This document shows positions 7,205-34,222 of a stretch of 64,000 bases of DNA, piece by piece. The notes under the pieces are model-generated. The model was given only the letters and a program-made list of their open reading frames with translations. It had not been told where the DNA came from and made no database searches. Location: contig JANXVY010000031.1 in assembly GCA_025351425.1 (NCBI GenBank), positions 9,202 to 73,201 of the forward strand. Direction: 5' to 3'. This DNA is from Hyphomicrobium sp. GTDB taxonomy: Bacteria; Pseudomonadota; Alphaproteobacteria; Rhizobiales; Hyphomicrobiaceae. The number at the start of each line of letters is the position of its first letter. Position 1 is the stretch's first letter. The translations under genes were made by a program, and so were the position numbers.

Positions 7205-8209
7205 ATGAAGATCCTTGTCACCGGAGCTGCGGGCTTCATCGGCTTTCACACCGCGTCCACCCTCCTTGCAGCGGGCCATACCGTCGTCGGCGTCGACAAT
7301 TTCAATGCCTATTACGATGTCGGCTTGAAACGCGCCCGCGCAGCACGGCTGGCCGGCGACCGCTTCCGGCTGGTCGAAATGGACTTGGCGAACCGCGAGG
7401 CCACGCAAAAGCTGTTCGACACCGAACGCTTCGACCGCGTCGTACATCTCGCAGCGCAGGCCGGCGTTCGCTACTCGATCGACCATCCCCACGCCTACGC
7501 CGATGCCAACCTGGTGGGCTTCCTCAACGTCCTGGAAGGCTGCCGGCAGACGGCCGTCGGCCACTGCGTGTTCGCATCCTCCAGTTCGGTCTACGGCGCC
7601 AACACCACGATGCCATTTCATGTCGAGGACAATGTCGATCACCCACTATCATTGTATGCAGCAACCAAGAAAGCCAATGAGCTGATGGCGCACAGCTACG
7701 CCCACCTCTACCGGCTTCCGCTGACGGGCCTGCGCTTTTTCACCGTCTACGGTCCCTGGGGCCGTCCCGACATGGCCGTCTACGGCTTCACGAAAAAGAT
7801 CCTGGCCGGCGAGCCCATCGACATATTCAACAACGGCCACCATGCGCGCGACTTCACCTACATCGACGACATCGTGACGGGCGTGGTGCGCACCTTGGAT
7901 CACACCCCCGCACCCGATCCCGCCTGGAGCGGCGCACACCCCACGCCCGCATCATCATCCGCGCCCTATCGCCTCTATAATATCGGCAACGCGAATCCGA
8001 CCGAGCTAATGACGCTCATAGCGACGCTCGAAGGCCTGCTCGGCAAGACCGCCATCAAGCGCTTCCTGCCGATGCAGCCGGGCGACGTGCTGGCGACTGG
8101 AGCCGACGTGAGCGCACTCACCGCAGCCGTTGGCTTTGCCCCATCGACGCCGATCGAAGAGGGATTGGCGCGCTTTGTCGCCTGGTACCGCGCTTATCAC
8201 GGCGTCTGA
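7205..8209 (+). CDS. NAD-dependent epimerase/dehydratase (UDP-glucuronate 4-epimerase-like)
   Basis: MKILVTGAAGFIGFH Rossmann motif, SSSSVYG, and YAATKKANE (YxxxK). Trimmed from the track ORF starting at 7193. Confidence 0.9.
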   Translation: MKILVTGAAGFIGFHTASTLLAAGHTVVGVDNFNAYYDVGLKRARAARLAGDRFRLVEMDLANREATQKLFDTERFDRVVHLAAQAGVRYSIDHPHAYADANLVGFLNVLEGCRQTAVGHCVFASSSSVYGANTTMPFHVEDNVDHPLSLYAATKKANELMAHSYAHLYRLPLTGLRFFTVYGPWGRPDMAVYGFTKKILAGEPIDIFNNGHHARDFTYIDDIVTGVVRTLDHTPAPDPAWSGAHPTPASSSAPYRLYNIGNANPTELMTLIATLEGLLGKTAIKRFLPMQPGDVLATGADVSALTAAVGFAPSTPIEEGLARFVAWYRAYHGV

Positions 8210-8211
8210 AC

Positions 8212-8240
8212 GAAAAACGCCCGCCGGTGAAGGCGGGCGT
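8212..8240 (-). terminator. rho-independent terminator downstream of phaB
   Basis: Stem ACGCCCGCC (8217-8225) / GGCGGGCGT (8232-8240). The plus-strand A-run at 8213-8217 gives a U-tract when read on the minus strand. It lies between convergent genes. Confidence 0.6.
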
Positions 8241-8341
8241 CAATCAACCGGTGCAAGTGCTCATGGGGCAAAAGCGACGAGGCCATCCTCGCCCGCACCC
8301 ACGAAGCGCCCCGGCGCATGCGCGCCAAAGCGCGAGCCCCC

Positions 8342-9067
8342 TCAAATCATGTACTGGCCGCCGTTGGCGGTGATAGTCGCGCCGGTGATGAAGCCGGCGT
8401 CGTCGGCGGCAAGGAACGCCACGCAGCGCGCGATCTCTTCAGGCTCGCCGAGACGGCCAACCGGGATGAACGGCAGGATCGACTTTTCCAGCACGGCTGG
8501 ATCGATCGCCTTCACCATTTCCGTCGCGATATAGCCCGGACAGATCGCGTTGACGGTGATGCCTGCGCGCGCGCCTTCCTGAGCCAGCGCCTTCACGAAG
8601 CCGATGTCACCCGACTTGGCGGCCGAATAATTAACCTGGCCCATCTGACCCTTCTGCCCGTTCACCGACGAGATGCAGATGACGCGGCCGAACTTGCGCG
8701 CGCGCATTCCTTCCCAGACCGGACGGGTCATGTTGAACAGCGAATTCAAGTTGGTGTTGATGACGCCATACCACTGATCGGGCGTCATCTTGTGGAACAT
8801 GCTGTCCTTGGTGATTCCGGCATTGTTGACCAGGACGTCGATAGGTCCCAGATCCTTTTCGACCTGCGCAAGGCCCGCCACACAAGCGTCATAGCTCGAC
8901 ACGTCCCACTTGTAGACCGGGATGCCGGTCTCGGCCTGGAACTGCTGAGCGGCGGCGTCGTTGCCGGCGTAAGTCGCCGCAACCCGATACCCCTTTGCTT
9001 TGAGACCGACTGAAATCGCGTGGCCAATTCCGCGCGTTCCTCCAGTAACGATAGCAACCCGTGTCAT
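8342..9067 (-). CDS. phaB: acetoacetyl-CoA reductase
   Basis: MTRVAIVTGGTRGIGHAI...NAGITKD...YSAAKSGDIGF...ANGGQYMI, an SDR with the PhaB-typical sequence. Trimmed to the Met at 9067. Confidence 0.92.
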   Translation of the reverse strand: MTRVAIVTGGTRGIGHAISVGLKAKGYRVAATYAGNDAAAQQFQAETGIPVYKWDVSSYDACVAGLAQVEKDLGPIDVLVNNAGITKDSMFHKMTPDQWYGVINTNLNSLFNMTRPVWEGMRARKFGRVICISSVNGQKGQMGQVNYSAAKSGDIGFVKALAQEGARAGITVNAICPGYIATEMVKAIDPAVLEKSILPFIPVGRLGEPEEIARCVAFLAADDAGFITGATITANGGQYMI

Positions 9068-9224
9068 GCGACGTTCTCCCTGGTGCCTGCCTTGCAGACA
9101 GGTTTTTGATGACTTTTTTGTTCGATTCAAACGCTTTGCGGTGTCTTAACTCGCAGGTCACGTTCACATTATTTTCAGTCCGCGCACTTACGATATCGCC
9201 GTTGCATACCTTGGAGACTCTCCT

Positions 9225-9515
9225 ATGTCGTGGATCGATCAGATCGTTGGATTCCTCATCGTCAGTCTGGCGTTCAGTTGGCCATATTTTGCTACTGTAA
9301 AGGGCATTTACGCGGCCCGCGGCAGAACCGGCACGAAGCGTGGCGTCTGGCTCGTTAGTGCTGGAATGTTCGGGCTCGCGTGCGTTCTTCCCTTTACGGC
9401 TGAAGGCCAGAAAACTGGTTCGTTCCTGACATTCTCGATCATGTTTGCCTGGGCGGCGATGCCGCTATTGGCGGTTTATGGACCGTTGGCGATCAAGCGA
9501 ATTGAGATCGATTGA
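9225..9515 (+). CDS. small hypothetical membrane protein (3 predicted TM helices)
   Basis: 96-aa ORF with hydrophobic segments. It is visibly lower in GC than its neighbours and lies opposite in orientation between phaB and phaA. Confidence 0.5.
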   Translation: MSWIDQIVGFLIVSLAFSWPYFATVKGIYAARGRTGTKRGVWLVSAGMFGLACVLPFTAEGQKTGSFLTFSIMFAWAAMPLLAVYGPLAIKRIEID

Positions 9516-9567
9516 CGGCGTCGACGAGCGCTGATCGCCGTCAGCAATCGTCGAAAACCCGTCATAC

Positions 9568-10752
9568 TCAGTCGCGGGCAACGCAAAGTGCGATGCCCAT
9601 ACCGCCGCCGATGCAGAGCGTAGCGAGGCCCTTTTTGGCGTCGCGGCGGCCCATTTCATAGAGTAGCGTGGTGAGCACGCGTGCTCCGGATGCGCCAATC
9701 GGATGGCCGATCGAGATCGCGCCGCCGTTGACGTTGACCTTGCTGGTATCCCAGCCGAGCCCCTTGTTCACGGCGCAAGCCTGTGCGGCGAATGCTTCGT
9801 TGGCTTCGATGAGATCGAGGTCGCTGGCCGACCAGCCGGCCTTCGCAAGGGCTGCCTTCGACGCGCTGATCGGGCCTGTACCCATGATCGAGGGGTCGAC
9901 GCCGGTGCTGGCCCACGACACGATCCGCGCAAGCGGCTTGATGCCCCGCTTCTTGGCTTCGGCAGCGCTCATCAGCACGAGCGCAGCCGCGCCGTCGTTG
10001 ATGCCCGAAGCGTTGCCAGCGGTAACCGAACCCGCCTTGTCGAACGCGGGACGCAGCTTGCCGAGCGCTTCGGCCGTGACGCCTTCCTTGATGAATTCGT
10101 CTTCCGAAATGACGACGTCGCCCTTGCGGGTCTTGACCGTGACGGGGATGATCTCGTCTTTGAACTTGCCGGCCTTGCGGGCGGCTTCGGCCTTGTTCTG
10201 CGAGGCGGCTGCGAACGTGTCCTGCTCTTCGCGGGTGATCTGCCACTGGCGGGCGACGTTTTCAGCAGTGTTGCCCATATGGTAGCCGTTGAAGGCGTCC
10301 ATCAGGCCGTCACGCAGCATGGTGTCGAGCATCTTCAGCTCGCCCATTTTCACACCGTCGCGCAGATGGGCGACGTGAGGCGATTGCGACATGCTCTCCT
10401 GACCGCCCGCAACGACGATCTTGGCCGAACCGTCGGCGATCTGCTGGGCGCCGAGTGCAACCGCGCGCAAACCGGAACCGCACAGCTGGTTCATGCCCCA
10501 GGCGGGGCTGTCGACGGGAATGCCGGCGGCGATCGAGGCCTGACGGGCGGGGTTTTGTCCGGTGTTGGCTGTCAGCACCTGACCAAGGATCACTTCCGAA
10601 ACGTCGGCGGGTGCAACGCCCGCGCGCTTGAGTGCTTCAATGATTGCCACTTTGCCCAATTCATGGGCCGGGAGAGAGGCCAGCCCCCCGCTGAAAGAGC
10701 CGACGGGCGTACGCGCGGCGCTGGCAATGACGATGGTCGTTTCTTCACTCAT
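9568..10752 (-). CDS. phaA: acetyl-CoA acetyltransferase (beta-ketothiolase)
   Basis: [20 protein letters not shown]...[11 protein letters not shown]...[13 protein letters not shown] thiolase signatures. Trimmed to the Met at 10752. Confidence 0.93.
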
Positions 10753-20386: not shown

Positions 20387-20696
20387 TTGGTCGAACCTGC
20401 TTTGAAATGGTATGTCACGGCTCTTGTTGGCGTCATTATGACCAGGAAACAAGAGCAGGAGTACGCGGCACGACGGGCGGCTTTAAGATCAAACCTCTAG
20501 CATCGCGCGATAACGCCCTTCCAATGCTGCCGAAAGTGCGATTTAAAAAATTGCCCGGAATTTTTGCATGCTGCTGCTATTTGGGCGGCACAGGCTGCCG
20601 CACTGGCCAGTGCCAGGCTGGCCGTGGCGAATCGAAACGAGACTAGTCTGGACGATGATGCAACGGACTGAGATGCAGCGGACTGAGACGGATACC

Positions 20697-22463
20697 ATGA
20701 GCGGACTGCGCGAGGCGCTTGGGCCACGCTCGATCGTGATGGTCGGGCTGATGGGGTGCGGAAAGTCTTCGGTGGGCAGGCGGATGGCTGCCCGCCTGGG
20801 GCTGCCGTTCGTCGATGTCGACGACGAAATCGAAACGTGCGCCCACAAGACGATCAACGAAATTTTCGCTGACCATGGCGAAGAGTATTTTCGCGACGGC
20901 GAGCGCCGCGTGATCGCGCGCCTGCTGAGCAACGGCCCGCAGGTGCTGGCAACCGGCGGCGGCGCGTTCATCAACCCCGAGACGCGCGCCAAGATCAAAG
21001 ACTCCGGCATCTCGATTTGGCTCAAGGCGGACCTGCCGGTACTGATGAAGCGGGTCTCCAAGCGCGACACGCGTCCGCTGTTGCGCAGCGGCGATCCCGA
21101 AGTCACCATGCTTAGCCTGATGGCGCAGCGCTATCCAATCTATGCGGAAGCCGATCTCGCCGTCGAAAGCCGCGACGTTCCGCACGATCAGATCGTGAAT
21201 GAAGTCATCGAAAGCCTGAAACGGCACCCCCTGCTGCAAGGATTGCGACCCCATGCCCAGTCCCAGAACCCGGCACGCCAGGCAGCCCAACAACGCGCGA
21301 TGGAGAAGAGCGTGAGCGCAGCCCTCATATCCGCAGTCACACCCCAAAAAGCAACACTCCCCCGCGTGGTGCACGTACCGCTTCCTGGACGCGCCTATGA
21401 CGTGCTGATCGGGCCGGCCCTCGTCGCTGAAGCCGGTCAGCTCATAACGCAGACACTGGGCCCGGTACGATGCGCCATCGTCACCGACGAAAACGTCGCC
21501 CGCCACCACCTGGCGACGCTGGAAGCAAGCCTCCGCGCACTCAATTGCCACGCCGGCACCATCGTGTTGCCGCCCGGCGAAGCGACGAAATCGTTCCGCC
21601 AGCTGCAGCCATTATGCGAACAGCTGCTGATGCTCGGGCTTGAGCGTGGCGATATCGTCGTCCCCTTTGGCGGCGGCGTGATCGGCGATCTGGCGGGCTT
21701 TGCGGCGAGCATTTTGCGCCGCGGCGTCCGCTTCGTGCAGGTCCCGACTTCGCTGCTGGCGCAGGTCGATAGCTCCGTCGGCGGCAAAACGGGCATCAAC
21801 ACGCCCCAGGGTAAGAACCTGATCGGCACGTTCCACCAGCCAAGCCTCGTACTGGCCGACACCAACGTGCTGTCGACACTGCCGGTTCGCGAAATGCGCG
21901 CAGGCTATGCCGAGGTCGCCAAGTACGGACTGCTCGGCGACGCGCCGTTCTTTGCGTGGCTCGAAGCCCACTGGCAGGGCGTGTTCGGCAACGACGCAAC
22001 CGCCCTTACGGACGCGATCGAAACCAGCATCAAGGCGAAGGCCGCTGTCGTCGTGCGCGACGAGCACGAAACCGGCGACCGCGCGCTGCTAAACTTGGGA
22101 CATACCTTCGGTCACGCGCTTGAAGCCTGGACGGGCTATTCCGGCCGCCTGTTGCACGGCGAGGGCGTGTCGATCGGCATGTGCCTCGCCTTCCGCCTGT
22201 CGGAACAGTTGAACCATTGCCCGCAAGGCACCGCCGAACGGGTGTCGAAGCATTTGAAGGCCGTGGGCTTGCCGACCCGCATTGGCGATATTCCCGGCGG
22301 AAAAGCCAACGCGGACGAGCTGTTTGCGCTGATGGGCCAGGACAAGAAGGTCAAATCCGGCCGCCTGACCTTCATCATGGCCCACAGCATCGGTCAGGCC
22401 TTTATCACGCGCGACATCGAACCCGGCACGGTGCGCGCTTTCCTCGCCAAGGAAATCGGGTAG
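20697..22463 (+). CDS. aroKB: bifunctional shikimate kinase / 3-dehydroquinate synthase (single uninterrupted ORF)
   Basis: The N-terminal part reads VMVGLMGCGKSSVGRRMA...FVDVDDEIE...ATGGGAF (AroK). The C-terminal part reads GGGVIGDLAGFAA..RGVRFVQVPTSLLAQVDSSVGGKTGIN...LNLGHTFGHALE (AroB). There is no stop codon between them. Confidence 0.85.
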   Translation: MSGLREALGPRSIVMVGLMGCGKSSVGRRMAARLGLPFVDVDDEIETCAHKTINEIFADHGEEYFRDGERRVIARLLSNGPQVLATGGGAFINPETRAKIKDSGISIWLKADLPVLMKRVSKRDTRPLLRSGDPEVTMLSLMAQRYPIYAEADLAVESRDVPHDQIVNEVIESLKRHPLLQGLRPHAQSQNPARQAAQQRAMEKSVSAALISAVTPQKATLPRVVHVPLPGRAYDVLIGPALVAEAGQLITQTLGPVRCAIVTDENVARHHLATLEASLRALNCHAGTIVLPPGEATKSFRQLQPLCEQLLMLGLERGDIVVPFGGGVIGDLAGFAASILRRGVRFVQVPTSLLAQVDSSVGGKTGINTPQGKNLIGTFHQPSLVLADTNVLSTLPVREMRAGYAEVAKYGLLGDAPFFAWLEAHWQGVFGNDATALTDAIETSIKAKAAVVVRDEHETGDRALLNLGHTFGHALEAWTGYSGRLLHGEGVSIGMCLAFRLSEQLNHCPQGTAERVSKHLKAVGLPTRIGDIPGGKANADELFALMGQDKKVKSGRLTFIMAHSIGQAFITRDIEPGTVRAFLAKEIG

Positions 22464-22662
22464 TCGCAGATCGCACTTAAATCTCGTCATGGTCGCACAG
22501 GCGGACCTCTGGTCGACCCGAATTTTCAACCGGTTCGTGTCAAACAGTTCGTCGGAACGTCCGGGTCGTGCCCTGCGCAGGCATGACGGCCGCCGCACGC
22601 CAGCGTCAAAAGACGAGAGTGCTCATTACCCGCGCGCCGCAGCCTATGCTAGACACACCACC

Positions 22663-23994
22663 ATGCCCTTAGAAATCATCCTCGTCCTGATCGCCATTTT
22701 TGTGCTGCTTGCGCTGTCGGCATTCTTCAACATCAGCGAAACCGCGCTGACGGCCTCTTCGCGCGCGCGCATGCACGCCCTGGAACAGGAGGGCGACAAG
22801 AATGCCTATCTCGTCAACCGCCTGATGACCCGGCCCGAACGGGTGATCGGCACCGTCCTGCTTGGCAATACGCTGGTGGACGTGCTGGCGGCAGCACTCG
22901 CCTCGCACCTTGCCGTGACGCTGGTGGGTGACGTCGGTGTGGTGGCGGCGACCTTCGTCATGACCGCGCTGATCGTGATCTTCGCGGCTGTTCTTCCCAA
23001 GACCTATGCGATGGCCGACGCCGACCGGACCGCGCTCGCGGTTGCCCCGTTCATGCGCGCGACCATCTGGTTTCTGGCGCCGCTGACGGTCGCTATGCAG
23101 GTGATCGTGCGGCTGTTGCTGAAATTGACCCCGTCCGCGCGCGACGATGCGGCCAACATCCTGGCGACCCACGAGGAACTGCGCGGTACGATCGAACTCG
23201 GCCACAAGGAAGGCGCGGTCGCCAAGGGCGATGCGCATATGCTGGGCGGCGTGCTCGATCTGTCGGACTTGCAAGTACTCGACATCATGGTCCACCGCAC
23301 CAAGATGGAGACGGTGAACGCCGACGATCCGCCCCAGACGATCCTCGATGAGATCCTGAAATCGCAGTACACACGTGTGCCGCTCTGGAAGGACGAACCC
23401 GAAAACATCGTCGGCGTTCTGCATACCAAGGACCTGCTGGTGGCGCTCGGCAAGCAGGGCTGGGATGTTGCGACGCTCGACGTCATGAGTTTTGCAGGCA
23501 AGCCCTGGTTCGTGCCCGATACGACGAGCGTAAAGGACCAGTTGAACCAGTTCTTGAAACAGAAGCAGCAGATGGCGCTGGTGGTCGACGAGTATGGCGA
23601 AGTGCAGGGCCTGATCACGCTTGAAGATATATTGGAGGAGATCGTAGGCCAAATCGCCGACGAGCACGACACCCACGAGAGCGCAATCCGCCCGCAGGCC
23701 GACGGCACGGTGAACGTGGATGGCGCGGTCGCGATCCGCGATTTGAACCGTCACATGGATTGGGACTTGCCCGATGAGGAGGCGACGACGATTGCCGGCC
23801 TCGTGATCCACGAAGCGCAGACCATCCCCGAGCCGGGCCAGGCGTTCACGTTTCACGGCTACCGCTTCGAGGTGCTGCGCAAGTCGCGCAACAAGATCAC
23901 GGCGCTGCGCGTGAAGCCGGTCGCCCCGGTCGGAGCCAATGGTGGCGGCAAGAGCGGCCGCAGCGGCGAAACCGACGCCATGTCGGCGGGGTGA
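22663..23994 (+). CDS. HlyC/CorC-family transporter (CNNM TM domain + CBS pair + CorC_HlyC)
   Basis: MPLEIILVLIAIFVLLALSAFFNISETAL..., then CBS-like repeats, then ITLEDILEEIVG and TFHGYRFEVL. Trimmed to the ATG at 22663. Confidence 0.88.
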   Translation: MPLEIILVLIAIFVLLALSAFFNISETALTASSRARMHALEQEGDKNAYLVNRLMTRPERVIGTVLLGNTLVDVLAAALASHLAVTLVGDVGVVAATFVMTALIVIFAAVLPKTYAMADADRTALAVAPFMRATIWFLAPLTVAMQVIVRLLLKLTPSARDDAANILATHEELRGTIELGHKEGAVAKGDAHMLGGVLDLSDLQVLDIMVHRTKMETVNADDPPQTILDEILKSQYTRVPLWKDEPENIVGVLHTKDLLVALGKQGWDVATLDVMSFAGKPWFVPDTTSVKDQLNQFLKQKQQMALVVDEYGEVQGLITLEDILEEIVGQIADEHDTHESAIRPQADGTVNVDGAVAIRDLNRHMDWDLPDEEATTIAGLVIHEAQTIPEPGQAFTFHGYRFEVLRKSRNKITALRVKPVAPVGANGGGKSGRSGETDAMSAG

Positions 23995-24108
23995 GCCGGG
24001 CGGGCGGCGGCCGCGCCTGTTGGCTCAACGCTTAACAACCGCCGCTTAGAGCGCGTTAGGAAAGGTGTGAAGCGGTTTTCGCATAAAAACGCGCGATAAA
24101 ACAATAAC

Positions 24109-24184
24109 CTAGTGTTCCGGTTCCGACATTTGCTTCCCACCGCAGCACGCACAGTGCAAATGCCGGAACCATGAGGAACACTAG
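24109..24184. repeat. 76-bp CTAG-bounded palindrome (MITE/BIME-like unit)
   Basis: Arms CTAGTGTTCC|GGTTCCG|CATTTGC pair with GCAAATG|CGGAACC|GGAACACTAG, about 24 paired bp around a 22-nt loop. Confidence 0.75.
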
Positions 24185-24197
24185 CCAGTTCATGATT

Positions 24198-24276
24198 CTA
24201 GTGTAGCTTTTGCATCTGACGTTTGGTTGATTGGCCGGCTGCGAGTGGGTACCAAACGTCAGATGCGCTACACTAG
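24198..24276. repeat. 79-bp CTAG-bounded palindrome (MITE/BIME-like unit)
   Basis: CTAGTGTAGC + GCATCTGACGTTTGGT pair with ACCAAACGTCAGATGC + GCTACACTAG, 26 paired bp with a 23-nt loop. It shares the CTAGTGT...ACACTAG termini with the neighbouring unit. Confidence 0.75.
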
Positions 24277-24348
24277 AGCATGTGAGCGATTCAAAGAAAA
24301 GCGAACATGCTCAAGAGCAGAAACGTCGCGCGCGACCGTGGCGAAGCG

Positions 24349-26412
24349 TCAAATCGGCGCCTTTTCCTCATATCTCGACGCAAACGGCGGCGCCAACTTG
24401 CCGCTGGATACCGCGCGAATGGCGTAAATGGCCTCTGCGATCGATTCTAGTCCATCGCCCGCGACAGGGATCGCTGAAAAGCCATCGGCAAACGACGCCG
24501 CAAAGCCCTGCGTCAGTTCGATGGGCAGAATGTTGCAGTGTGCTTCGTCGAACAAGGTTTTGCGGTATCCGATTTCCCGCTGAACCCAGCCAGCTTGCCC
24601 ATCGGGCCCTGCCGCCCGTTCCGACACGAACGGAACCATGACCAGCGATTCTGCGAGCGCCAATTCTATTTCGTTCTTGAACCGGCGCATGGCCTCAGGA
24701 CGGCTCATATAGACCCGCAACCCCGACGTCTCCATTTCTTCGCGCCAGATGTTCGCTATTCTCTCATCCCGATGAGAATAACTTATGAAAACATCGAAAG
24801 AGAATTGGTTGGCGAGCTGTCGCTTTATTGCTTCGACGATTTTCGAGTAGACCAAGGGGCCGAATGATTTCAGGGCGCGCTCATGAATACATACGATCTT
24901 GACGGGTGAGCTGCTCGGGCCCATATCGATCGAAAACTTGTGATAATGCCCGACAACGGCCCCATCCAGATTGGCATAGACGATCGGGAGTGCGGCCGCA
25001 TCGAGTGTCTTATTGATGACTTCGTTTTGCGTCGACTCTTTGAGCCTTCCGCCCGCGAGGATATAAAGACCTGGCGTTTTAAAATTATCGAAGGATTTAA
25101 AAACGAATTCAGCGTCTTTCCAGTCGGCGGATACGATCTCAGAATCCCAGACCATTCTTTCCCACGGTTGCTCGACCCCCGCCAGAGGCGCCGAATTTCC
25201 CTTCGCCAGATAGTCGCAATTGCTGCAAACGAAGCTCAACACGCGATCCAGAAGGAATTCATTGAAAGCGCGTTCCAGCCGGAGATTTTTCGGATTGGCG
25301 TTCAGCAACCCCTGCAAGGTATTGTAGTTGATCGACAGCATGGCCGTCGGGCCTATCGCCTGCAAGGTAGCCGTTCTGTGGCGATTAAGTGCGAGGGCGA
25401 GTTCGCCGACGATTGCTCCTTCGCCGAAGCTCAAATCGAAGGGCGTTGCCGATTGAGTGGCACTCGAACCAGTCTGCGTATTGAGCACGACCCCGATTTG
25501 CCCCTTGAGCACGATAAACATAGTGTCACCGGCATCGTCTTTCATGCAGATCGTCTCGCCGTCTTCGCGTTCGACCAGATGTGCATTGAGCACGAGATCT
25601 TGCATCGATTGCCGGTTCATTTGCGAAAACAAGGGATGAGCCTCAATGCGCTGACCGCTGGGTCCATGGACCACCAATTGCGTAGGGCTGATCATATGCA
25701 AGGCATTCACCGCATCGGGGTCCAGCGAAGCGATCTGGAGCAATCGCTTGGCATGGTAGATGACCGCCCAGAAGTTCCCAGCCTGCAAGGTGCTTTGCAG
25801 CGACGTCCTGACCGTGTTTGATATTTCCGGAATAACTGAACTGAAAACACCGTCCAACGATAGATAGGCGACTGTATGAGCGCGATGGTGCTTTAGATAC
25901 ACGACCCTGTTACCGGCGAACGTGACCCTGCCAACGAGATCGCCACCGCTTGATCTCTGCCCGCCGATAAAGTCGCAAAATGCAGCGGTCGCAACGACGG
26001 CGCCCGGCGTACCGAACTTCAACAGGCTACCGCACAGATTTATGCCATCGCCTGCGAGCTCTTTGCGGGAATCGGCGCCTTCCAGAACGGAAACCGGGCC
26101 GTAGTGCGCCGTCAACCGCAATGCGAGGTTGGGATTATTGTGATCTGGTGACCTGGCATTGGCCCACAGAAAAAGCTCTCTGATCAACGCAAGTGCTGTT
26201 TCGGCATGGCGATCGCTCAGGAACGCAATGTGGCCGCCGTCGCCACCGGACGCCCAGATGACGTCGTTGGAGAAATAGGGTGCGCAGACCTTGCGGATGC
26301 ATCCGTTCAAGGCCTCAATGCGCGCAACTTGACGGCGATGATTCGTATCCGCGCCGTGTCCGACGATATCGCACGATACGAGGATCGCATCCTCCGGCGG
26401 GTCGGTCACCAT
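24349..26412 (-). CDS. fusion protein: class III nucleotidyl-cyclase-like domain + cNMP-binding domain + second degenerate cNMP-like barrel + C-terminal TIR domain (687 aa)
   Basis: Track ORF 24349..26562 trimmed to MVTDPPEDAILV (ATG at 26412, preceded by GGAG with 8-nt spacing). Cyclase-like motifs are LVSCDIVGHG, SGGDGGHIAF, LRLTAHYGPV and GDGINLCGSLLKFGTPGAVVAT. The CNB domain reads GDTMFIVLKGQIGVV...FGEGAIVGELALALNRHRTATLQA. The TIR domain reads FDVFISYSHRDE...LVMVPFVS...GWVQREIG. GC content is visibly lower than in the flanks. Confidence 0.85.
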   Translation of the reverse strand: MVTDPPEDAILVSCDIVGHGADTNHRRQVARIEALNGCIRKVCAPYFSNDVIWASGGDGGHIAFLSDRHAETALALIRELFLWANARSPDHNNPNLALRLTAHYGPVSVLEGADSRKELAGDGINLCGSLLKFGTPGAVVATAAFCDFIGGQRSSGGDLVGRVTFAGNRVVYLKHHRAHTVAYLSLDGVFSSVIPEISNTVRTSLQSTLQAGNFWAVIYHAKRLLQIASLDPDAVNALHMISPTQLVVHGPSGQRIEAHPLFSQMNRQSMQDLVLNAHLVEREDGETICMKDDAGDTMFIVLKGQIGVVLNTQTGSSATQSATPFDLSFGEGAIVGELALALNRHRTATLQAIGPTAMLSINYNTLQGLLNANPKNLRLERAFNEFLLDRVLSFVCSNCDYLAKGNSAPLAGVEQPWERMVWDSEIVSADWKDAEFVFKSFDNFKTPGLYILAGGRLKESTQNEVINKTLDAAALPIVYANLDGAVVGHYHKFSIDMGPSSSPVKIVCIHERALKSFGPLVYSKIVEAIKRQLANQFSFDVFISYSHRDERIANIWREEMETSGLRVYMSRPEAMRRFKNEIELALAESLVMVPFVSERAAGPDGQAGWVQREIGYRKTLFDEAHCNILPIELTQGFAASFADGFSAIPVAGDGLESIAEAIYAIRAVSSGKLAPPFASRYEEKAPI

Positions 26413-26581
26413 GCCAGCCACTCCATATGAGAAGGCGCGCAACCGATGGTACAGGCCTGCCCCAAACCATCGGCCGAGGATTCGTAAGCGAGTGCGGCCT
26501 CCAGCTAGGTCGGCCTTGGCTCGCCGCGACCAAGCGTATTCGAGACACGATGACCTCGGCAAGCCCGTTTCGGGAATTGCG

Positions 26582-26610
26582 AAAAAAGTGTTCCCCGGAG
26601 CGGGGAGAAC
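26582..26610 (-). terminator. rho-independent terminator downstream of hrpB
   Basis: Read on the minus strand: GTTC(T)CCC-CGCTCC-GGGGAAC followed by ACTTTTTTC. The plus-strand A-run is at 26582-26587. Confidence 0.55.
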
Positions 26611-26649: not shown

Positions 26650-29130
26650 TCACGTTCCCCTTGGCTTGGCGCGCGCGGTGGGCGCGGTATTCGCGGGATC
26701 GTCGGGCCAGACGTGACGGGGATAGCGGCCTTTCATGTCTGTCTTGACGCTGCTCCAGGAGCCCGCCCAGAAGCCCGGCAGGTCTCGCGTGATCTGGATC
26801 GGCCGGTGCGCAGGCGAAAGCAAATGCAGGGTGAGCGGCCGCCTGCCGCCGGCAATTGTGGGATGCACCTTCAGCCCGAACAGCTCCTGCACGCGAATGT
26901 CTATGGATGGGGCCTGCGGCCCCTCGTAGTTGATCGCGACTCGGTTGCCGGTGGGCGCCTCGAAGTGCATCGGCGCTTCGCGCTCAAGGCGCTGCTTCAG
27001 CTCCCACGGCACCAGCGCATCGAGCGCTGAGCCAAGGTCGTCCGCTCCGATGTCGGAGAGCCGGGTCTTGCTCGACAGATACGGCACGAGCCAGTCACTA
27101 GCGCTCGCCCCCAGAGCGGCATCCGAGAGATCGGGAAGGCCGTCCATCCCGGATGCTGCAAGAAACGCGACGCGCTCGCGCAGCTGGAACTGGGCCTTGG
27201 TCCATGGCAGCTTGTCGATGCCGATGAGCGCGATGCCAGCCGCAAGCGCACTCGCAACCTCGAGTCCAGGCGTGACGGCGCGCGGCTCGGAAGCGAGAAT
27301 GATGGCATCCAACCGCTTGACGCGGCGCGCGCGCACGGCTCCCGCAGCGGCATCGAACGTGACCTCCACGCCCTCCGTGATGCGGCGGCTGCACGCGGCG
27401 AGCAGTATCGCTTCGGTCACGGGCACCGCGCTCATGATGCGGGCGTTGGCGGCTTGACCGGTCAGCTCGGCGACGACGAGATAAGGGCTGGCGGCGATGG
27501 CCTCCTTGGGATCAGCCAGCGCACCCCGCCCGTTGGCGAGCAGGAATTGCCCTCGCTCGCCACGCGCCTTGCCGATGCGGTCGGGAAACGCGAGCAGCAG
27601 CAGCTCCGCGGTTGACACTCTATCGTGAGGCACGCCCCCCTGGCGAGCGGACGCCGTGCCGGCACGGGCCGCCCAGCCGGCCGCCAGGCGCCGCATGTCC
27701 TCCGCCCGCCGCCCGCGATCGCGCCGGAACCCGGCGAGCCGCGCCGAGAGATCGACATCGGTGCCGCCAAGTCCGCGCTCGACGAGCAGGCTCGCGAGTT
27801 CGGCCGCATCATGCGCAGCCCCCCGCTCGCCGGCCGACAGTACCATGGCGGCCAGCCTCGGCGGCAGCGGCAGCGCGCGCAGCCTCATGCCAAGCGGCGT
27901 GATGCGCCCCGCGGCGTCCAGCGCCGAGAGCGTTACGAGTTCGGACGTGGCGGCCGACAGCGCGGCTGACCCCGGCGGATCGAGCCACGACAGCGAGAGA
28001 GGATCGACCGCCCCCCATTCCGCGCAATCGAGCACGAGGCCGGACAGGCTCGCGGCTTTGATCTCGGGCTCGTTGTAGGGTAGCAGCGCGAGATCCTGCG
28101 GCGCATCCCACAGCCGATAGCAGACGCCGGGCTGGGTGCGGCCCGCGCGTCCCCGCCGCTGATCGGCGGACGCTTTGGAGACGCGCACCGTGTCGAGCCG
28201 GGTGACGCCCACATCGGGCTCATAGCGGGGCACGCGGGCAAGCCCGGAATCGATGACGACGCGTACGCCCTCGATGGTGATCGAGGTTTCGGCAATCGAG
28301 GTCGCAAGCACGACCTTGCGAGTTCCAGGCTCGGGCGGGCTGACGGCAAGATCCTGGGCGCCAGCGTCCATCGTGCCATAGAGCGGCGCGAGGATGATGC
28401 TGTCGTCGCGCATTGTTTCCCGGAGCCGTTCCTCGACGCGGCGGATTTCAGCCTGCCCCGGCAAGAACGCGAGCACCGATCCCGTCTCGGAAGTAAGCGC
28501 GCGGCGGATCGCGGCCGCCATCTGGTCTTCGAGCCGCGCTTGAACGTCACGCCCCAGATAGCGCGTCTCGACGGGGTAGGCGCGGCCGAGGGACGAGATG
28601 ACCGGCGCATCGTCGAGCAGCCGGGCGACGCGCGCGCCATCCAACGTCGCCGACATGACGAGAATGCGCAGATCGGGCCGGTAGCCGCGCTGGCAATCGA
28701 GCGCGAGCGCAAGGCCGAGATCGGCGTCCAGCGAGCGCTCGTGGAACTCGTCGAACAGCACCGCGCCAACACCCTCGAGCGCCGGATCGTCCAGGATCAT
28801 CCGCGTGAATACGCCCTCAGTGATGACCTCGATGCGGGTACGCTTGGATACGTTGGTGCCAAGCCGGGCACGGATGCCAACCGTCTCGCCGGTGCGCTCG
28901 CCGAGAGTCTTGGCCATGCGGTCCGCCGCACCACGCGCTGCGAGGCGGCGGGGCTCCAGCACGAGAATTTTTCGACCCTCCACCCACGGCGCGTCCAGCA
29001 GCGCGAGCGGCACCCGCGTGGTCTTGCCAGCGCCAGGCGGCGCAACCAATACGGCGCACGCACGAACGGTGAGCGTTGCCAGCAGTTCTGGCAGCGCTTC
29101 TTCGATCGGCAACCGCTCGTCCATCCTCAT
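26650..29130 (-). CDS. hrpB: ATP-dependent RNA helicase HrpB
   Basis: VLVAPPGAGKTTRVPL, LFDEFHERSLDADL and TSIAETSITIEGV DEAH-box motifs, with a long HrpB-type C-terminal region. Trimmed to the Met at 29130. Confidence 0.9.
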   Translation of the reverse strand: MRMDERLPIEEALPELLATLTVRACAVLVAPPGAGKTTRVPLALLDAPWVEGRKILVLEPRRLAARGAADRMAKTLGERTGETVGIRARLGTNVSKRTRIEVITEGVFTRMILDDPALEGVGAVLFDEFHERSLDADLGLALALDCQRGYRPDLRILVMSATLDGARVARLLDDAPVISSLGRAYPVETRYLGRDVQARLEDQMAAAIRRALTSETGSVLAFLPGQAEIRRVEERLRETMRDDSIILAPLYGTMDAGAQDLAVSPPEPGTRKVVLATSIAETSITIEGVRVVIDSGLARVPRYEPDVGVTRLDTVRVSKASADQRRGRAGRTQPGVCYRLWDAPQDLALLPYNEPEIKAASLSGLVLDCAEWGAVDPLSLSWLDPPGSAALSAATSELVTLSALDAAGRITPLGMRLRALPLPPRLAAMVLSAGERGAAHDAAELASLLVERGLGGTDVDLSARLAGFRRDRGRRAEDMRRLAAGWAARAGTASARQGGVPHDRVSTAELLLLAFPDRIGKARGERGQFLLANGRGALADPKEAIAASPYLVVAELTGQAANARIMSAVPVTEAILLAACSRRITEGVEVTFDAAAGAVRARRVKRLDAIILASEPRAVTPGLEVASALAAGIALIGIDKLPWTKAQFQLRERVAFLAASGMDGLPDLSDAALGASASDWLVPYLSSKTRLSDIGADDLGSALDALVPWELKQRLEREAPMHFEAPTGNRVAINYEGPQAPSIDIRVQELFGLKVHPTIAGGRRPLTLHLLSPAHRPIQITRDLPGFWAGSWSSVKTDMKGRYPRHVWPDDPANTAPTARAKPRGT

Positions 29131-29192
29131 ACGGTGTGCCTCATCCGGGATGTATGGAACGAAGGGAGCGGCACAGGCAAGAGCGCGGCCCC

Positions 29193-30281
29193 CTACTCGG
29201 TCCGCTTGGCAGCGCTCGCCAGCAGATCCTGGACCTGCTGCTTCCAAAGCTTGGCGGCGAGCACGGTGCCATGGCCGCTGGTTTCTTCGCTGCCGGGAAT
29301 GAGAAACAGCCGCGCGCCTTCGATGCGCTTCAACTCGCGGTCCATGACGCCGGTCTCGGGCGGGTTACGCTCATCGTCGGCCGAATTGATCGCCAGCACC
29401 TTCGCGCGGATGGCATCCAACTTGGCCCCCGGATTGTAGTCGCGCGAGGCCTCGTATTGGAACAGCAGGTCGTTCGCATCGGTCGGGAACGCCGCCGCCA
29501 GCCTGGCATCGAGGATCTTGTCGGCCGCCTCGCGCGTCGGCGCTGCGTTCTGGAACGCCCGCGAACCGCCGTTTGTTGCGACGAGATAGAACGCGGTGGC
29601 GGCCCGCACCCGCTGTGGCTGCGTAGTGTAGTTGCCGTTGTTCCAATCGGGATCGTTGCGGATGGAGTCGATGACCAGCCGCCGCATCATCCAGTTCCGG
29701 CTCGACATTTCGGCCGGCTGCGAAGCCATCGGCGCGAGCACATCCATGAAGTTGGGATAGCTGCCGCCCCAGATCCAGGCGTTCATACCGCCCATCGAGA
29801 AGCCGAGCACGAGCCGCACATGTTTGATGCCGAGCCCTTCGGTCACCAGCCGGTATTGGGCGCTGACCATGTCGTCGTAGTTGTAGGAGGGGAACTTGGC
29901 GCGCAGGCCGTCCGACGGCTTCGACGATTTGCCGTGGCCAATCGAGTCCGGCAGAATGATGAAATATTTGCTCGCATCCAGCGGCTGGCCAGGGCCGAAC
30001 AGTTCGCCGCCAAAGCCGGGCGTGAGCAAGCCGGGACCGGAGCCGTTCGTGCCGTGCAGCACCAGGACCGGCTCGCCAGTCGGCGCACCAAGCGTCGTGT
30101 AGTGCAGGCGCAGCTCCGGCAGCACGTCGCCGGTGTGAAAGCGGAAATCCTTGGCGACGAAGTCGCCCTCTTGAGGTGCAGGCCCATCCGCCGCCCGTGC
30201 CGAGGGTCCAACGAGTGAGCAAGCCAGGACGGCGATTGTGCAGGCGATGACGGCGCAGGCAGGAGCAAAGATTCGTTTCAT
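29193..30281 (-). CDS. secreted alpha/beta-hydrolase (homoserine O-acetyltransferase-like fold)
   Basis: Signal peptide MKRIFAPACAVIACTIAVLA and the nucleophile elbow GFSMGG. Trimmed to the Met at 30281. Confidence 0.8.
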   Translation of the reverse strand: MKRIFAPACAVIACTIAVLACSLVGPSARAADGPAPQEGDFVAKDFRFHTGDVLPELRLHYTTLGAPTGEPVLVLHGTNGSGPGLLTPGFGGELFGPGQPLDASKYFIILPDSIGHGKSSKPSDGLRAKFPSYNYDDMVSAQYRLVTEGLGIKHVRLVLGFSMGGMNAWIWGGSYPNFMDVLAPMASQPAEMSSRNWMMRRLVIDSIRNDPDWNNGNYTTQPQRVRAATAFYLVATNGGSRAFQNAAPTREAADKILDARLAAAFPTDANDLLFQYEASRDYNPGAKLDAIRAKVLAINSADDERNPPETGVMDRELKRIEGARLFLIPGSEETSGHGTVLAAKLWKQQVQDLLASAAKRTE

Positions 30282-30404: not shown

Positions 30405-31973
30405 TCAAGCAGCCAGGCGCGCGGCGTCGATCCACTTGACGATCCGGCTTGCATCCGGAGGCGCGTTGTTGCGGAGGATGTGTTGACCAGGGCCCGAAGC
30501 CGCGTAGCGCAGCACGCACGCGCACAGCGCGCCCGGGTCGGCGCTCGCGACGTCGTGGGCGGTCAGATAGCCAGCACCCGTCAAAAGTCGCGCCTGCGTT
30601 CCAGAGAGGCCTGGAACATCGAGCACAAGGCGCGCTTGCTGCTGCCAGACCTTGAGCGTATCGGCGTCCATCCCGGCATGATGCAGCGCCCGCGCGGTGC
30701 GCTCGGGATCGCAGGCCAGAAAGTCGCGCACGGTTTTGATCCCCAACCCGGCAAATCGCTCCGCCGTCTTCGCGCCGATCGATGGCGCAGCTTCCAGATC
30801 GTCGGACAAGCTGAGTTTCGCCGTCACAGGAACCGGCACCAACCCTGCTGCATCGCGCTTTGGAGCCACGGCCTCTGGCTCGGCGTCCGCAAAGTGCGCA
30901 GGAGTGGCCAGAGGAAGTGCGGCAGGTTCCCCAGGAAGGCGGGCAGGAACAGCCTCGCGCAGGGACTTGGCTGGGGCGGAATGCTCGGATGGCGAAGCAG
31001 ACTTCAGCCACGGCGCCACAGTGGCGGGCGTGAAGATCGCAGCCTTTGCAGAGGCACCGAGCACCTCGACTGCGTGCACCTCTTTGACCATCCGGTCGTC
31101 GGCGGGCAGATTTTTCTCGACCACCCCCGTCGCCATCAACTCGTCGTACATGGCCTCCACCACGCGCCGGTCCGCGGCGTCCGCAAGCCGCTTCAGCACC
31201 ATGGCTTTGGGGATGCTCAACGCCCCGATGATCGCCGGCAGCACGAGGCTGACCTGCGGAGCCGCAACCGCAGCCTCGGCAATCGCCTGGTCAATGACCC
31301 GCGCGACGGTCGCGGCCGCAAGCACGAGCAAGTCGCCCGCGATCCGCCGCCCCACAGGGTCAAGTCCCGCTGGCGGATCGACCACGCCGCGCGTAATGTC
31401 GTAGTGCGCGATGAGCCGCTCGTAGTCCTGGTTCGACCGGCTGGCCGATGCCCGCACCAGCTCCGCGAGCCACGCCGCGCCCGGCGCGATTTCAACCACC
31501 GGCTGCGGCGTGCGCACGAGACCTTCGCGGCGCAGGTCGTCATAGGCGCGGTTGATGCTCCACTCGGCAGCGCGGTGGATATTGTTTTCGGCTTCCGATT
31601 GCGCAGTGTGGAACGGCATCAGCGGATCGGTCACGTAGTGGCTGAGCACACCGGCCGAATAGACCGCAGTGTCCCAGTCCTGGACCGACAGCGCAGCAAC
31701 CGTCTTGGCGTACCACACAGTGGCGGCGGCCGGCGCGCCTCCCCAGAAAGAATCGCGCGGGTGCAGTACGTGGTTGGTGAAATCCTTGAACGTGTCGTCG
31801 GGCGCCTTCGCGCCTTCGACGAACCGCGCCGCATGTGCGAGAAAAACGCTCTGCCAGGCGTCGGCGTTTGCAACCGTCATCTGCCCGAGCGCATCCAGCG
31901 CCAGCTTGTGATGGGTGCCCTTGCCGAAGGCGGCGTAGAGAATGCGAAAAGCAAGCGTCATTGCGGGCCTCAT
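30405..31973 (-). CDS. zinc phospholipase C-like N-terminal domain + DUF4332 (HhH) C-terminal domain protein
   Basis: The N-terminus has GKGTHHKLALDAL...HYVTDPLMPFH...NIHRAAEW. The C-terminus has SIGAKTAERFAGLGIKTVRDFL...VPGLSGTQARLLTGAGYLT, two HhH-like repeats. Its ATG overlaps the stop of the upstream ORF (ATGA). Confidence 0.65.
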   Translation of the reverse strand: MRPAMTLAFRILYAAFGKGTHHKLALDALGQMTVANADAWQSVFLAHAARFVEGAKAPDDTFKDFTNHVLHPRDSFWGGAPAAATVWYAKTVAALSVQDWDTAVYSAGVLSHYVTDPLMPFHTAQSEAENNIHRAAEWSINRAYDDLRREGLVRTPQPVVEIAPGAAWLAELVRASASRSNQDYERLIAHYDITRGVVDPPAGLDPVGRRIAGDLLVLAAATVARVIDQAIAEAAVAAPQVSLVLPAIIGALSIPKAMVLKRLADAADRRVVEAMYDELMATGVVEKNLPADDRMVKEVHAVEVLGASAKAAIFTPATVAPWLKSASPSEHSAPAKSLREAVPARLPGEPAALPLATPAHFADAEPEAVAPKRDAAGLVPVPVTAKLSLSDDLEAAPSIGAKTAERFAGLGIKTVRDFLACDPERTARALHHAGMDADTLKVWQQQARLVLDVPGLSGTQARLLTGAGYLTAHDVASADPGALCACVLRYAASGPGQHILRNNAPPDASRIVKWIDAARLAA

Positions 31974-32380: not shown

Positions 32381-34222
32381 TTACCCCCTCATCCGGCTCC
32401 GGATGATACGGGGAAATTCGTCCGCGGGGCCGGGCTGCCCCTGGGCGTCGGTTGCTGCGGCCGGCGTATCCATCGACCACCAGCGGTCGGCGGGTGCGGG
32501 GGCGGCAGGCGCCTGCGGGGCCATGCGGGCCTGAGGCGCCTGTTGGGGCTGATGCGCCAGCGCGGGCTGCGGCTGGGAAGCGGGCGCTGCACCGGCAAAC
32601 CAATGCTCGATGAGATCAAGTTCGTCGACGCCGAGGGTCAGCCCGTGGCTGCGGCAGCGGGCGACAACGAAGTTTCGGAACCGGCTGGCGAACAGGTTTG
32701 CGGATGCGCCCTGTTCGAACCACGGATCGGTCTCGCTGACGACCTCGAGCACGAAGCGCACGTCGTCGCCGCGCACATCGACGCCCAGCGCCTTGGCGGC
32801 GGCCGCGATGTTGTCGAGCGTGGGCGCGCCGGTGAGGCCGCGCGTGCTGATTTCCTGCGCCATGACGTCGAACAGCGTTCGATATTCCGGCGGTGACAGC
32901 GGAGGAGCCTGGCAGGCGTCATAGATGCGCGCGACGGCCTGCTGGATTGCGATTGCCGACGGACCGGCGGGACGAGCGGCGGCATTAGGAGCAGCAACCG
33001 GCTGCGGCACGGGCTTGGGAGCCTCGTGCGCGATATTGGCCTGGGGCGCCGGCGCGGGCTGCAGAGGAGGCGCAGCGGGCGCACGCTGTACGGGCGGCAA
33101 CGACGCCGTGAGCGGCACCGGGTCATGCGCAGGGGCACCGGCCGCCTGACCGCGCTGCGCGAGGGGAGCTAACCGCTCAAGCCGATGCAAAGCAGGCTGG
33201 GGCTGGGGCTGGGGAGCCTGGGCGTGAATCTGCGGCAGCGTTTCGAGACGCTGCGGAGCCGGCGCTTGACGTTCCGGCCGGGCGGCGGGCGGCAACGCGC
33301 GAGCCATCTCGAACACGACGAACGGCGGCTGCTCGCTGATGCGCAGGTCTTCGGGCAGATAGGCGGCGAGCAGTTCGCGGAAACCACCTGCCCCACCCCA
33401 ACCGGTGCCAGCGGTCTTGTCGTGCCCCATCTGGCGCAGCGTGCGGTCGGCGAGCGCTTCGAGCGGCACCGGCTGCCCGGCGGAACGCACCAGAGTTGCC
33501 ACTTCGGCGACGATCTCGCGACGCAGTGCACTGAGATCGGCCTGCGGACGGGCTGGTTGAGCAAGTGCTGGCTGAGCCTGCGCGATCTGGGCCGGAGCGG
33601 ACTGCACTTCAATGGCAGGCTCGCTCGCGCCGGTCTTGCCGTCGAGCAGCAGCTGCAGCAGCGTCGACTCGCGCACTTCCCCGTCGCTGATCGCGGTGTA
33701 GGGCGAGGCGGTGTGATCGTTCGTGTAGATGATCGTGCGCCGCGCGTGCGCCCGCAACCGGTGCAGCAGGGGCGTAAAATCGGCGTCGCCCGACAGGATG
33801 ACGAACTCGTCGAAATAGGTGTCGTGCGCAATCATGTCCCGCACGTCCATGACGATGCGGATGTCGGCAGAGTTTTTGAGCTGGGCAGTGAGCGGGGGGC
33901 AATCAATCACTTCGCTGCCCGAGCGCAGGAAGTGGTGGCGCACGAACGGGAACGAGTTCATGTCGGTCGAATTGTCGTTGCTGTTGCGGCGCGGCACGGG
34001 ATTGCCGTAGCACCGGTTCATGACGATGCGGCGGGGCGCGGCCTGGAGGACGCCGCTGGTCATGGTGATGAGGCGGCCGTTTTCGAGCTCCTTGAGCCAG
34101 AGGCCAGCATCTTTGGAGAAGCGCTTCGCGGCGTCTTCATTCTTGCGCTTCAGCGACAGATAGATGTTGTCGTAATCGACAAAAATCGCGCTCAACGCTG
34201 GCCCGGTCGCGTCCCGCTTCAT
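32381..34222 (-). CDS. NYN (LabA/DUF88-type PIN-like) domain protein with a long Pro/Ala/Gln-rich C-terminal region
   Basis: N-terminus: AIFVDYDNIYLSL...ADIRIVMDVRDM...FVILSGDADFTPLLHRLR. A central segment resembles an OST-HTH/LOTUS fold (tentative). There are extensive APQ low-complexity tracts. Confidence 0.8.
   Translation of the reverse strand: MKRDATGPALSAIFVDYDNIYLSLKRKNEDAAKRFSKDAGLWLKELENGRLITMTSGVLQAAPRRIVMNRCYGNPVPRRNSNDNSTDMNSFPFVRHHFLRSGSEVIDCPPLTAQLKNSADIRIVMDVRDMIAHDTYFDEFVILSGDADFTPLLHRLRAHARRTIIYTNDHTASPYTAISDGEVRESTLLQLLLDGKTGASEPAIEVQSAPAQIAQAQPALAQPARPQADLSALRREIVAEVATLVRSAGQPVPLEALADRTLRQMGHDKTAGTGWGGAGGFRELLAAYLPEDLRISEQPPFVVFEMARALPPAARPERQAPAPQRLETLPQIHAQAPQPQPQPALHRLERLAPLAQRGQAAGAPAHDPVPLTASLPPVQRAPAAPPLQPAPAPQANIAHEAPKPVPQPVAAPNAAARPAGPSAIAIQQAVARIYDACQAPPLSPPEYRTLFDVMAQEISTRGLTGAPTLDNIAAAAKALGVDVRGDDVRFVLEVVSETDPWFEQGASANLFASRFRNFVVARCRSHGLTLGVDELDLIEHWFAGAAPASQPQPALAHQPQQAPQARMAPQAPAAPAPADRWWSMDTPAAATDAQGQPGPADEFPRIIRSRMRG

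Follow-up and report, generated by a model that had tools for sequence, protein, structure and literature searches.

A 64,000-nucleotide stretch of DNA from Hyphomicrobium sp. (GenBank assembly GCA_025351425.1, contig JANXVY010000031.1, positions 9,202 to 73,201 of the forward strand; hereafter the window) carries on its minus strand a single gene whose product joins a class III-type nucleotidyl cyclase, a helical linker, two consecutive cyclic-nucleotide-binding (CNB) barrels, referred to as CNB-A and CNB-B, and a TIR domain. Translation of the open reading frame (ORF) places the ATG at 26412 and the TGA at 24351-24349, homologues begin at the site equivalent to this start codon, and public data hold a 100% identical protein (P0001). 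The features of the gene, in order along the protein, are the following.

24349..26412, minus strand: complete gene encoding cyclase, helical linker, CNB-A, CNB-B and TIR (ORF and translation, 687 amino acids plus stop)
26421..26424, minus strand: GGAG Shine-Dalgarno-like motif, 8 nt 5' of the ATG at 26412 (read from the sequence)
25843..26394, minus strand: divergent class III nucleotidyl-cyclase domain, residues ~7-190 (family profile, AlphaFold2 (AF2), Foldseek and conservation)
26368-26370, minus strand: cyclase metal Asp D15 (alignment)
26239-26241, minus strand: cyclase metal Asp D58 (alignment)
25678..25812, minus strand: conserved TPR-like helical linker, residues ~201-245, W..IYHAKRLLQ..S.D..A..AL, with R223 invariant (model and conservation)
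25285..25647, minus strand: CNB-A, canonical cyclic-nucleotide-binding domain, residues ~256-376 (Pfam PF00027)
25357-25428, minus strand: phosphate-binding cassette of CNB-A, residues 329-352 (sequence)
24805..25284, minus strand: long helix and second CNB-like beta-barrel (CNB-B) without the cassette Arg or Glu, residues ~377-536 (full-length model, Foldseek and hhalign)
24403..24801, minus strand: TIR domain, residues ~538-670 (Pfam TIR_2 and family profile)
24574-24576, minus strand: putative catalytic Glu E613 (alignment to SARM1)

A preliminary description, made from the sequence alone, had recognized a cyclase-like domain at the N-terminus by its motifs. The Pfam model Guanylate_cyc (PF00211) leaves the window protein unmatched, with nothing in its N-terminal 250 residues, and matches 2 of 35 family N-termini, both below threshold (best E 0.011); direct searches of the N-terminus with Pfam, NCBIfam and PADLOC models (PADLOC-DB version 2023) also returned no match. 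Family alignments were built from homologues and comprised 50 full-length sequences (A1), 35 N-termini (A2) and a TIR profile (A3). Comparison of the A2 profile with PDB sequences revealed similarity to Ma1120 at E 6e-8, followed by GC-A, Rv1900c, CyaC and sGC. A match to RecA (the 3cmu polyprotein) that topped the profile list was rejected as a 22-residue chance similarity, GEGINFYGELVDLG in RecA against GDGINLCGSLLKFG in the alpha4 region of the cyclase, multiplied by six RecA copies. The AF2 model of residues 1-205 (predicted local distance difference test (pLDDT) 91, predicted template modelling score (pTM) 0.89) displays the palm-like beta-alpha-alpha-beta-beta-alpha-beta arrangement of the class III cyclase homology domain, and a Foldseek search of the PDB with this model returned class III adenylyl or guanylyl cyclases as all of its top 50 matches, with E from 5e-11 to 6e-9 and template modelling (TM) scores of 0.6-0.73. 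The agreement of the family profile with AF2 and Foldseek establishes the class III fold, which bears out the proposed cyclase-like domain with the Pfam Guanylate_cyc search negative.

Residue conservation was counted in 50 sequences with identity down to ~30%. In the cyclase, D15, D58, R99 on beta4 and N125, the ribose/transition-state Asn, are invariant (50/50), which provides the metal Asp pair, the Arg and the Asn of class III enzymes, and these four residues fall on the corresponding motifs in Ma1120 and in two PF00211-positive relatives, P0105 and P0106. K174, which corresponds to the Lys of the C-terminal KG, is present in 47 of the 50. An invariant Ala (A54) occupies the Lys/Glu base-specifying position, position 118 (seven residues before N125, the Asp/Cys/Thr specificity position) is Gln or Glu, and the motif WASGGDGGH takes the place of K..GD..m.

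The full-length model (pLDDT 87, pTM 0.71) places the linker helices at residues 201-211, 214-227 and 232-239 and the second barrel at residues ~417-536. CNB-A is recognized by Pfam cNMP_binding (PF00027) at residues 283-372 (E 6e-13, 49 bits against a cutoff of 27.5), and its cassette residues G332, E337, R346 and T347 are invariant (50/50), as expected of a CNB domain of the CAP/PKA type. The PADLOC models PycTIR and Effector give weak partial matches on the CNB part (E about 2.5e-7 to 6.6e-9), and ThsB a very weak one on the TIR part. Foldseek matched 280-410 columns of the full-length model with proteins that have tandem CNB domains, among them Plasmodium PKG and PKA R subunits, PKGs scoring best, and hhalign comparison of CNB-A with CNB-B was marginal (E 0.094) and in structural register. 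The cassette reads RTAT, as do those of PKG and CNG channels; this likeness and the PKG-best Foldseek result together offer a weak, if plausible, hint of a purine ligand, possibly cGMP.

Pfam TIR_2 (PF13676) matches residues 541-634 at E 8.5e-8 (33.2 bits against a cutoff of 28). A search of the PDB with the single TIR sequence gave no match, and the family profile was needed: A3 found the SARM1 TIR as its best match at E 2.4e-8, with W-V-x-R-E-I aligned to W-V-H-K-E-I, and also matched bacterial TcpB (4lqc) and PdTIR (3h16). The Glu of the SARM1 motif is the catalytic E642. D540, F542, W609 and E613 are invariant (50/50), and the combination of a TIR fold with a W-x-x-x-E Glu marks the domain as an enzymatic TIR with predicted NADase activity. 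Conservation of this kind at the cyclase, cassette and TIR sites is what three functional sites would show, as opposed to domains in decay.

The motifs quoted in the preliminary description are all where it had put them, namely D15, D58, LRLTAHYGPV, GDGINLCGS, the cassette FGEGAIVGELALALNRHRTATLQA, GLYILAGGRLKES, DVFISYSHRDE and GWVQREIG with E613. Its first CNB domain is secured by the above-cutoff Pfam match and the invariant cassette, its second barrel without the cassette Arg reappears in the full-length model and the tandem-CNB alignments with hhalign marginal, and its TIR domain with a retained Glu is recovered by TIR_2 above cutoff and by the SARM1 alignment. Its caveat that Ser stands four residues after the Asn (N+4) in place of the transition-state Arg is correct; the residue is S129.

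A word-indexed search of 5.8 billion clusters identified ~110 clusters at 90% identity that share the architecture, and its occurrence in so many homologous clusters indicates that it is not due to chance. The hosts are Alphaproteobacteria (Hyphomonadaceae, Roseiarcus and Acetobacteraceae metagenome-assembled genomes (MAGs)), many Actinomycetota (Micromonospora, Phytohabitans, Actinoplanes, Amycolatopsis, Saccharothrix and Solirubrobacterales), Verrucomicrobiota, Burkholderiales and Phycisphaerales. When 1.84 billion representatives were searched exhaustively with a hidden Markov model of the cyclase, 106 proteins reached E<=1e-30, followed by a gap in the scores, and the cyclase clade comprises about 100 clusters at 50% identity. 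Among its 99 best representatives, 66 are at least 600 residues long and 50 are 640-700 residues long. These 66 and P0001 made up the 67 full-length sequences scanned for effectors: a CNB domain is present in every one (67/67), TIR_2 in 53, Abhydrolase_6 in two, one of them also matching DUF676, a Ser/Thr kinase in one and a CHAT protease in one, while single-protein checks found the kinase in P0085 and a DUF676-like hydrolase in P0104. Pseudonocardiaceae and their relatives carry a different TIR subtype. The cyclase clade is found almost exclusively within the fusion, and a constant cyclase and tandem-CNB core with swappable effectors is the architectural syntax typical of conflict systems.

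Stand-alone cyclases of this clade, ~210-230 residues long, were observed at L089 (6001-6684, P0134) and L090 (344-973, P0119), with no CNB or TIR gene seen nearby; the N+4 residue is Ala in P0134 and Arg in P0119. At three loci in long-read or low-coverage assemblies, L088, L091 and L092, copies are called as separate 'cyclase' and 'CNB-TIR' genes and could be mistaken for two-gene systems. None was accepted as such: tblastn resolved L088 (6001-7835) into one contiguous homologue with a frameshift, at L091 (1687-3724), on a long-read contig of 2x coverage, the gene calls overlap and a frameshift is probable, and L092 (6001-7058) appears to be a decayed copy, the last two being judged from overlap and fragment sizes. 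P0043, which looked N-terminally truncated, is an apparent partial gene call, tblastn matching residues 1-687 on a same-length contig (L010); of P0043-P0046, the check covered P0043.

On the same strand upstream of the gene lies hrpB at 26650-29247 (Pfam DEAD, Helicase_C and HrpB_C), and downstream, convergent with it, a CNNM/CorB-type transporter gene at 22489-23994. Two further features lie in the spacers.

26590..26610, minus strand: terminator-like hairpin and T-run after hrpB (consensus scan, pattern match only)
24198..24276, no strand assigned: long imperfect hairpin (or inverted repeat), intergenic and 3' of the gene, with 16-nt perfect arms at 24212-24227 and 24251-24266

The terminator-like hairpin at 26610-26590 would separate the cyclase-CNB-TIR gene from hrpB transcription, and the locus conforms to the earlier account of an hrpB with its own terminator and a convergent downstream neighbour. 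The arms of the 24198-24276 hairpin are the 16-nt GCATCTGACGTTTGGT and ACCAAACGTCAGATGC, flanked by the complementary 10-nt CTAGTGTAGC and GCTACACTAG, these outer arms being read from the sequence. This element, which is not assigned to the gene, could be either a terminator or a repetitive element; it is single copy within the window and has no Rfam match. Four independent public assemblies containing an identical gene each stop 66 nt past the stop codon, before the hairpin, which suggests a genome-wide assembly-breaking repeat. Rfam and tRNA scans of the window returned no matches, and hence no tRNA integration site. Farther out, a fused aroK-aroB (20568-22463, plus strand, a 631-residue ORF with shikimate kinase and 3-dehydroquinate synthase) precedes the CNNM/CorB gene. 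Two unusual neighbours without a PADLOC match are a 522-residue protein at 30405-31973 (minus strand), which begins with a Zn-dependent phospholipase C domain and has DUF4332/HHH at its C-terminus, and a 613-residue NYN-domain protein at 32381-34222 (minus strand).

All-against-all BLAST of the neighbours at 38 loci from Alphaproteobacteria, Actinomycetota, Verrucomicrobiota and Burkholderiales found no partner gene conserved across lineages, in accord with the earlier statement that the gene has no partner. The exceptions are synteny within the genus Lentzea and 8xMP (PF24838) in four actinobacterial loci. This membrane protein of ~190 residues directly adjoins the family member at L013 (9995-10558), L022 (10108-10665), L041 (10007-10603) and L027 (7322-7888) and is absent from the window; a literature search on '8xMP' found nothing relevant. 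In this actinobacterial subclade it may serve as an accessory protein or a second effector. The only recurrent defence-flavoured neighbour seen is a protein of ~750-820 residues with a TIR-like N-terminus (MEFDVFINYRTAD...), which adjoins the family member in Actinophytocola, Actinosynnema and Saccharothrix (L031 5234-7702, L034 9844-12099 and L037 9964-12099).

The gene has a GC content of 55.4% and a GC content at third codon positions (GC3) of 0.65, against 63-69% and 0.76-0.81 for the flanking genes, and a GC trough of 52-56% at window positions 24000-26400 coincides with the gene and its 3' spacer. This foreign composition points to horizontal acquisition, probably as a recent single-gene insertion between hrpB and CNNM/CorB. 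The closest context is found in a Roseiarcus sp. MAG (L038), in which HrpB is 77% and the cyclase-CNB-TIR homologue 59% identical; there, in the region with features at 7566-9599 and 10263-10550, the homologue lies upstream of hrpB, and in the window downstream. The differing sides of hrpB point to independent insertions or to rearrangement at an hrpB-linked hotspot. Some loci have a transposase, SLATT, HicB or an extra TIR protein nearby, and the L091 copy adjoins a SLATT_1 protein and a transposase. The frameshifted or decayed copies at L088, L091 and L092 are signs of turnover.

We put at about even the chance that the protein is a single-chain TIR NADase gated by a cyclic nucleoside monophosphate (cNMP), that is, a fused Pycsar/Pucsar-like abortive-infection or suicide switch. 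Class III cyclases must dimerise to form active sites, and the cyclase domains would homodimerise accordingly. An infection or stress cue would turn on synthesis of a 3',5'-cNMP, which would bind CNB-A in cis and, by diffusing, other copies in trans, with amplification and possibly positive feedback as a result. The tandem CNB module would rearrange and drive TIR-TIR assembly, and the TIR domain would hydrolyse NAD+, whereupon the infected cell would stop growing or die. Sister proteins would couple this core to other killing or signalling modules, namely alpha/beta-hydrolase/DUF676, Ser/Thr kinase or CHAT protease. PycTIR, which has an N-terminal CNB domain and a C-terminal TIR and is activated by cUMP binding via oligomerisation (PMC11224242), is the direct precedent for the proposed switch, and Pucsar carries the scheme over to cGMP.

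Several observations weigh against this reading. The transition-state Arg of N-x-x-x-R is absent from the window protein, and across the family the N+4 position is Ser in 31 sequences, His in five, Arg in four, Gly and Trp in three each, Gln in two, and Asn and Ala in one each, a variability which may mean that the catalytic rate is low or the chemistry altered. Arg is kept at this position in P0104, P0119, P0105, P0106 and P0146, which are deeper branches and cyclase-only or PF00211-positive relatives. The Lentzea relatives, syntenic within the genus, lack any effector, and P0105, P0106, P0119 and P0134 consist of the cyclase only or of cyclase and CNB, from which it follows that the core could be an ordinary signalling switch. 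A defence-island context, raised as a check in the preliminary description, was not found: PADLOC gave no match among 10 window neighbours within about 10 kb and no enrichment among 132 neighbours at 23 loci, where 12 models, mostly generic (patatin phospholipase effector models, WYL, mad2, Cas3-like helicase and SduA), matched 1-2 proteins each. The neighbours are mostly metabolic in the window and at most loci, and plasmid and phage collections yielded no homologue. The PADLOC PycC models matched none of the 35 family N-terminal domains at E<=1, and PDLC00734, the one PycC model that the full-length protein matches, hits the CNB domain rather than the cyclase. A diffusible messenger inside one chain has no clear need, and the steps proposed above are read from domains and their conservation. 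With no defence island, no plasmid or phage homologue, effector-less relatives and no strict membership of Pycsar, the defence role is one that we infer from the architecture, as we do the nucleotide made and the trigger.

Housekeeping or stress signalling is possible but, on balance, rather unlikely. A self-activating cNMP switch, or a reader of cAMP or cGMP, would then tune NAD+ or make a product of the cyclic ADP-ribose type in dormancy, development or metabolic control, and the cyclase may be mainly a dimerisation or allosteric nucleotide-binding module. Such a role would suit the metabolic or housekeeping neighbours in the window and at most loci, the lack of PADLOC enrichment, the missing N+4 Arg, the vertical inheritance of effector-less cyclase and tandem-CNB relatives in Lentzea, and the many hosts that are developmentally complex actinomycetes; cyclases activated by their own product are known, as with the GAF domain of Anabaena CyaB1. 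However, all other catalytic residues of the cyclase are invariant, which argues against a pseudo-enzyme and favours an active site that still functions, albeit an unusual one, over a defunct domain. The patchy phyletic distribution, the GC-anomalous gene and the pseudogenised copies also speak against ordinary signalling, as do the rarity of the family (~110 clusters among 5.8 billion) and its alternative C-termini (TIR, DUF676-like hydrolase, CHAT and kinase), which form a typical conflict-system effector set.

Harder to credit is a Panoptes-like guard, which we consider doubtful. The cyclase would be constitutively active and its own cNMP, bound to CNB-A, would hold the TIR domain OFF until phage Apyc-type phosphodiesterases or sponges, evolved against Pycsar, Pucsar or CBASS signalling, stripped the ligand and released the NADase. 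The base might be an unusual one, given the unique pocket of A54 and Gln/Glu118, making the protein a fused, cNMP-based counterpart of Panoptes; in an alternative version it would be a self-amplifying, all-or-none switch whose product activates both cyclase and TIR. Fusion gives 1:1 stoichiometry and a high local ligand concentration, which suits a tonic hold-off better than a diffusible alarm, the chain shows no distinct domain for sensing, and a slow cyclase without the alpha4 Arg would be adequate for tonic synthesis. Reported precedents are the decoy cyclic nucleotides of Panoptes (PMC12657218) and the phage anti-Pycsar nucleases (PMC9117128). Yet the ligand is an activator, not an inhibitor, of the known CNB-TIR effectors PycTIR and PucTIR, constitutive activity is presumed, and the sequence does not separate ON from OFF logic. 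That the protein is a TIR virulence effector of the TcpB/TirS kind, secreted or aimed at a host and controlled by the host's cyclic nucleotides, is very improbable. The TIR profile matches TcpB (4lqc) and PdTIR (3h16), but neither a signal peptide nor neighbours linked to secretion were observed. The family occurs in free-living Alphaproteobacteria and actinomycetes of soil or water, many of them represented only by MAGs, and the protein carries its own conserved cyclase.

If the fused cNMP-gated NADase is functional, its 687-residue chain would unite synthase, receptor and NAD+-destroying effector without a partner, which would make it the most compact cyclic-nucleotide immune pathway known and a one-gene, ligand-gated NADase candidate for structural and synthetic-biology work. 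It raises the question of why tethered parts should employ a diffusible messenger; amplification in trans, thresholding and guarding against phage cNMP-degrading enzymes are possible reasons. Logic of the Pycsar type would, if this is true, reach Alphaproteobacteria and many actinomycetes outside defence islands. The preliminary description had left open whether the fusion is catalogued; the PADLOC models (2023) do not cover it, and a cyclase clade missed by Pfam, PADLOC and PycC models would be overlooked by defence annotation pipelines. No description of a cyclase-CNB-TIR fusion was found in the searchable literature, the coverage of which leaves out the Pucsar preprint, Tal et al. 2021 (Pycsar) and Burroughs et al. 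2015.

Comparison with the canonical class III cyclases (Ma1120, Cya2, Rv1900c, CyaC, sGC and GC-A) reveals a common fold (TM 0.6-0.73) and the same metal Asp pair, beta4 Arg, Asn and C-terminal Lys. In contrast to them, the fusion protein has the invariant A54, Gln/Glu118, S129 and WASGGDGGH and falls below Pfam thresholds. With PKA R subunits and PKG it would share, judging from the model, two consecutive CNB barrels that gate a C-terminal catalytic output, whereas its second barrel lacks the cassette, its output is a TIR domain rather than a kinase, and the source of the ligand lies in the same chain. The likeness to SARM1 resides in the TIR Glu, which aligns to the WVHKEI motif.

Pucsar is an offshoot of Pycsar that pairs a cGMP cyclase, PucC, with a TIR or transmembrane (TM) effector and in which the CNB-TIR effector is activated by filament assembly (bioRxiv 10.64898/2026.08.12.744502). 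A possible purine cNMP and the CNB-TIR effector are the points of likeness to the fusion protein, and the apparent two-gene organization, as opposed to a single chain, is the difference, the comparison being with the description of the system.

Pycsar (Tal et al. 2021) pairs a PycC cyclase with a separately encoded PycTIR or PycTM effector, its messenger being cCMP or cUMP. The Pycsar-like character claimed in the preliminary description is upheld in part. The cyclase is of the class III type, a CAP-type CNB stands N-terminal to the TIR as in PycTIR (PF00027 before PF13676 in one chain, the organization of a Pycsar effector), and the cassette Gly-Glu...Arg-(Ser/Thr) is conserved. What did not stand is membership in the strict sense, as the cyclase has no PycC-family match and a single ORF replaces the two-gene operon. 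The residues by which PycC reads the pyrimidine (F100/R142/Q144 and Y50/D94/R97) lie next to the metal Asp (PMC11224242), and at these base-reading positions the fusion protein has the small residues S13, A54, G56 and G57, so that a pyrimidine product would be pure assumption. It also differs from Pycsar in the ~160 extra residues, a long helix and a degenerate CNB barrel, between CNB-A and TIR, and in a TIR closest to the SARM1 type. The system is therefore Pycsar/Pucsar-like in its working and not a strict Pycsar member, and its cyclase belongs to a separate clade given over to a design in which synthase, receptor and effector share one chain.

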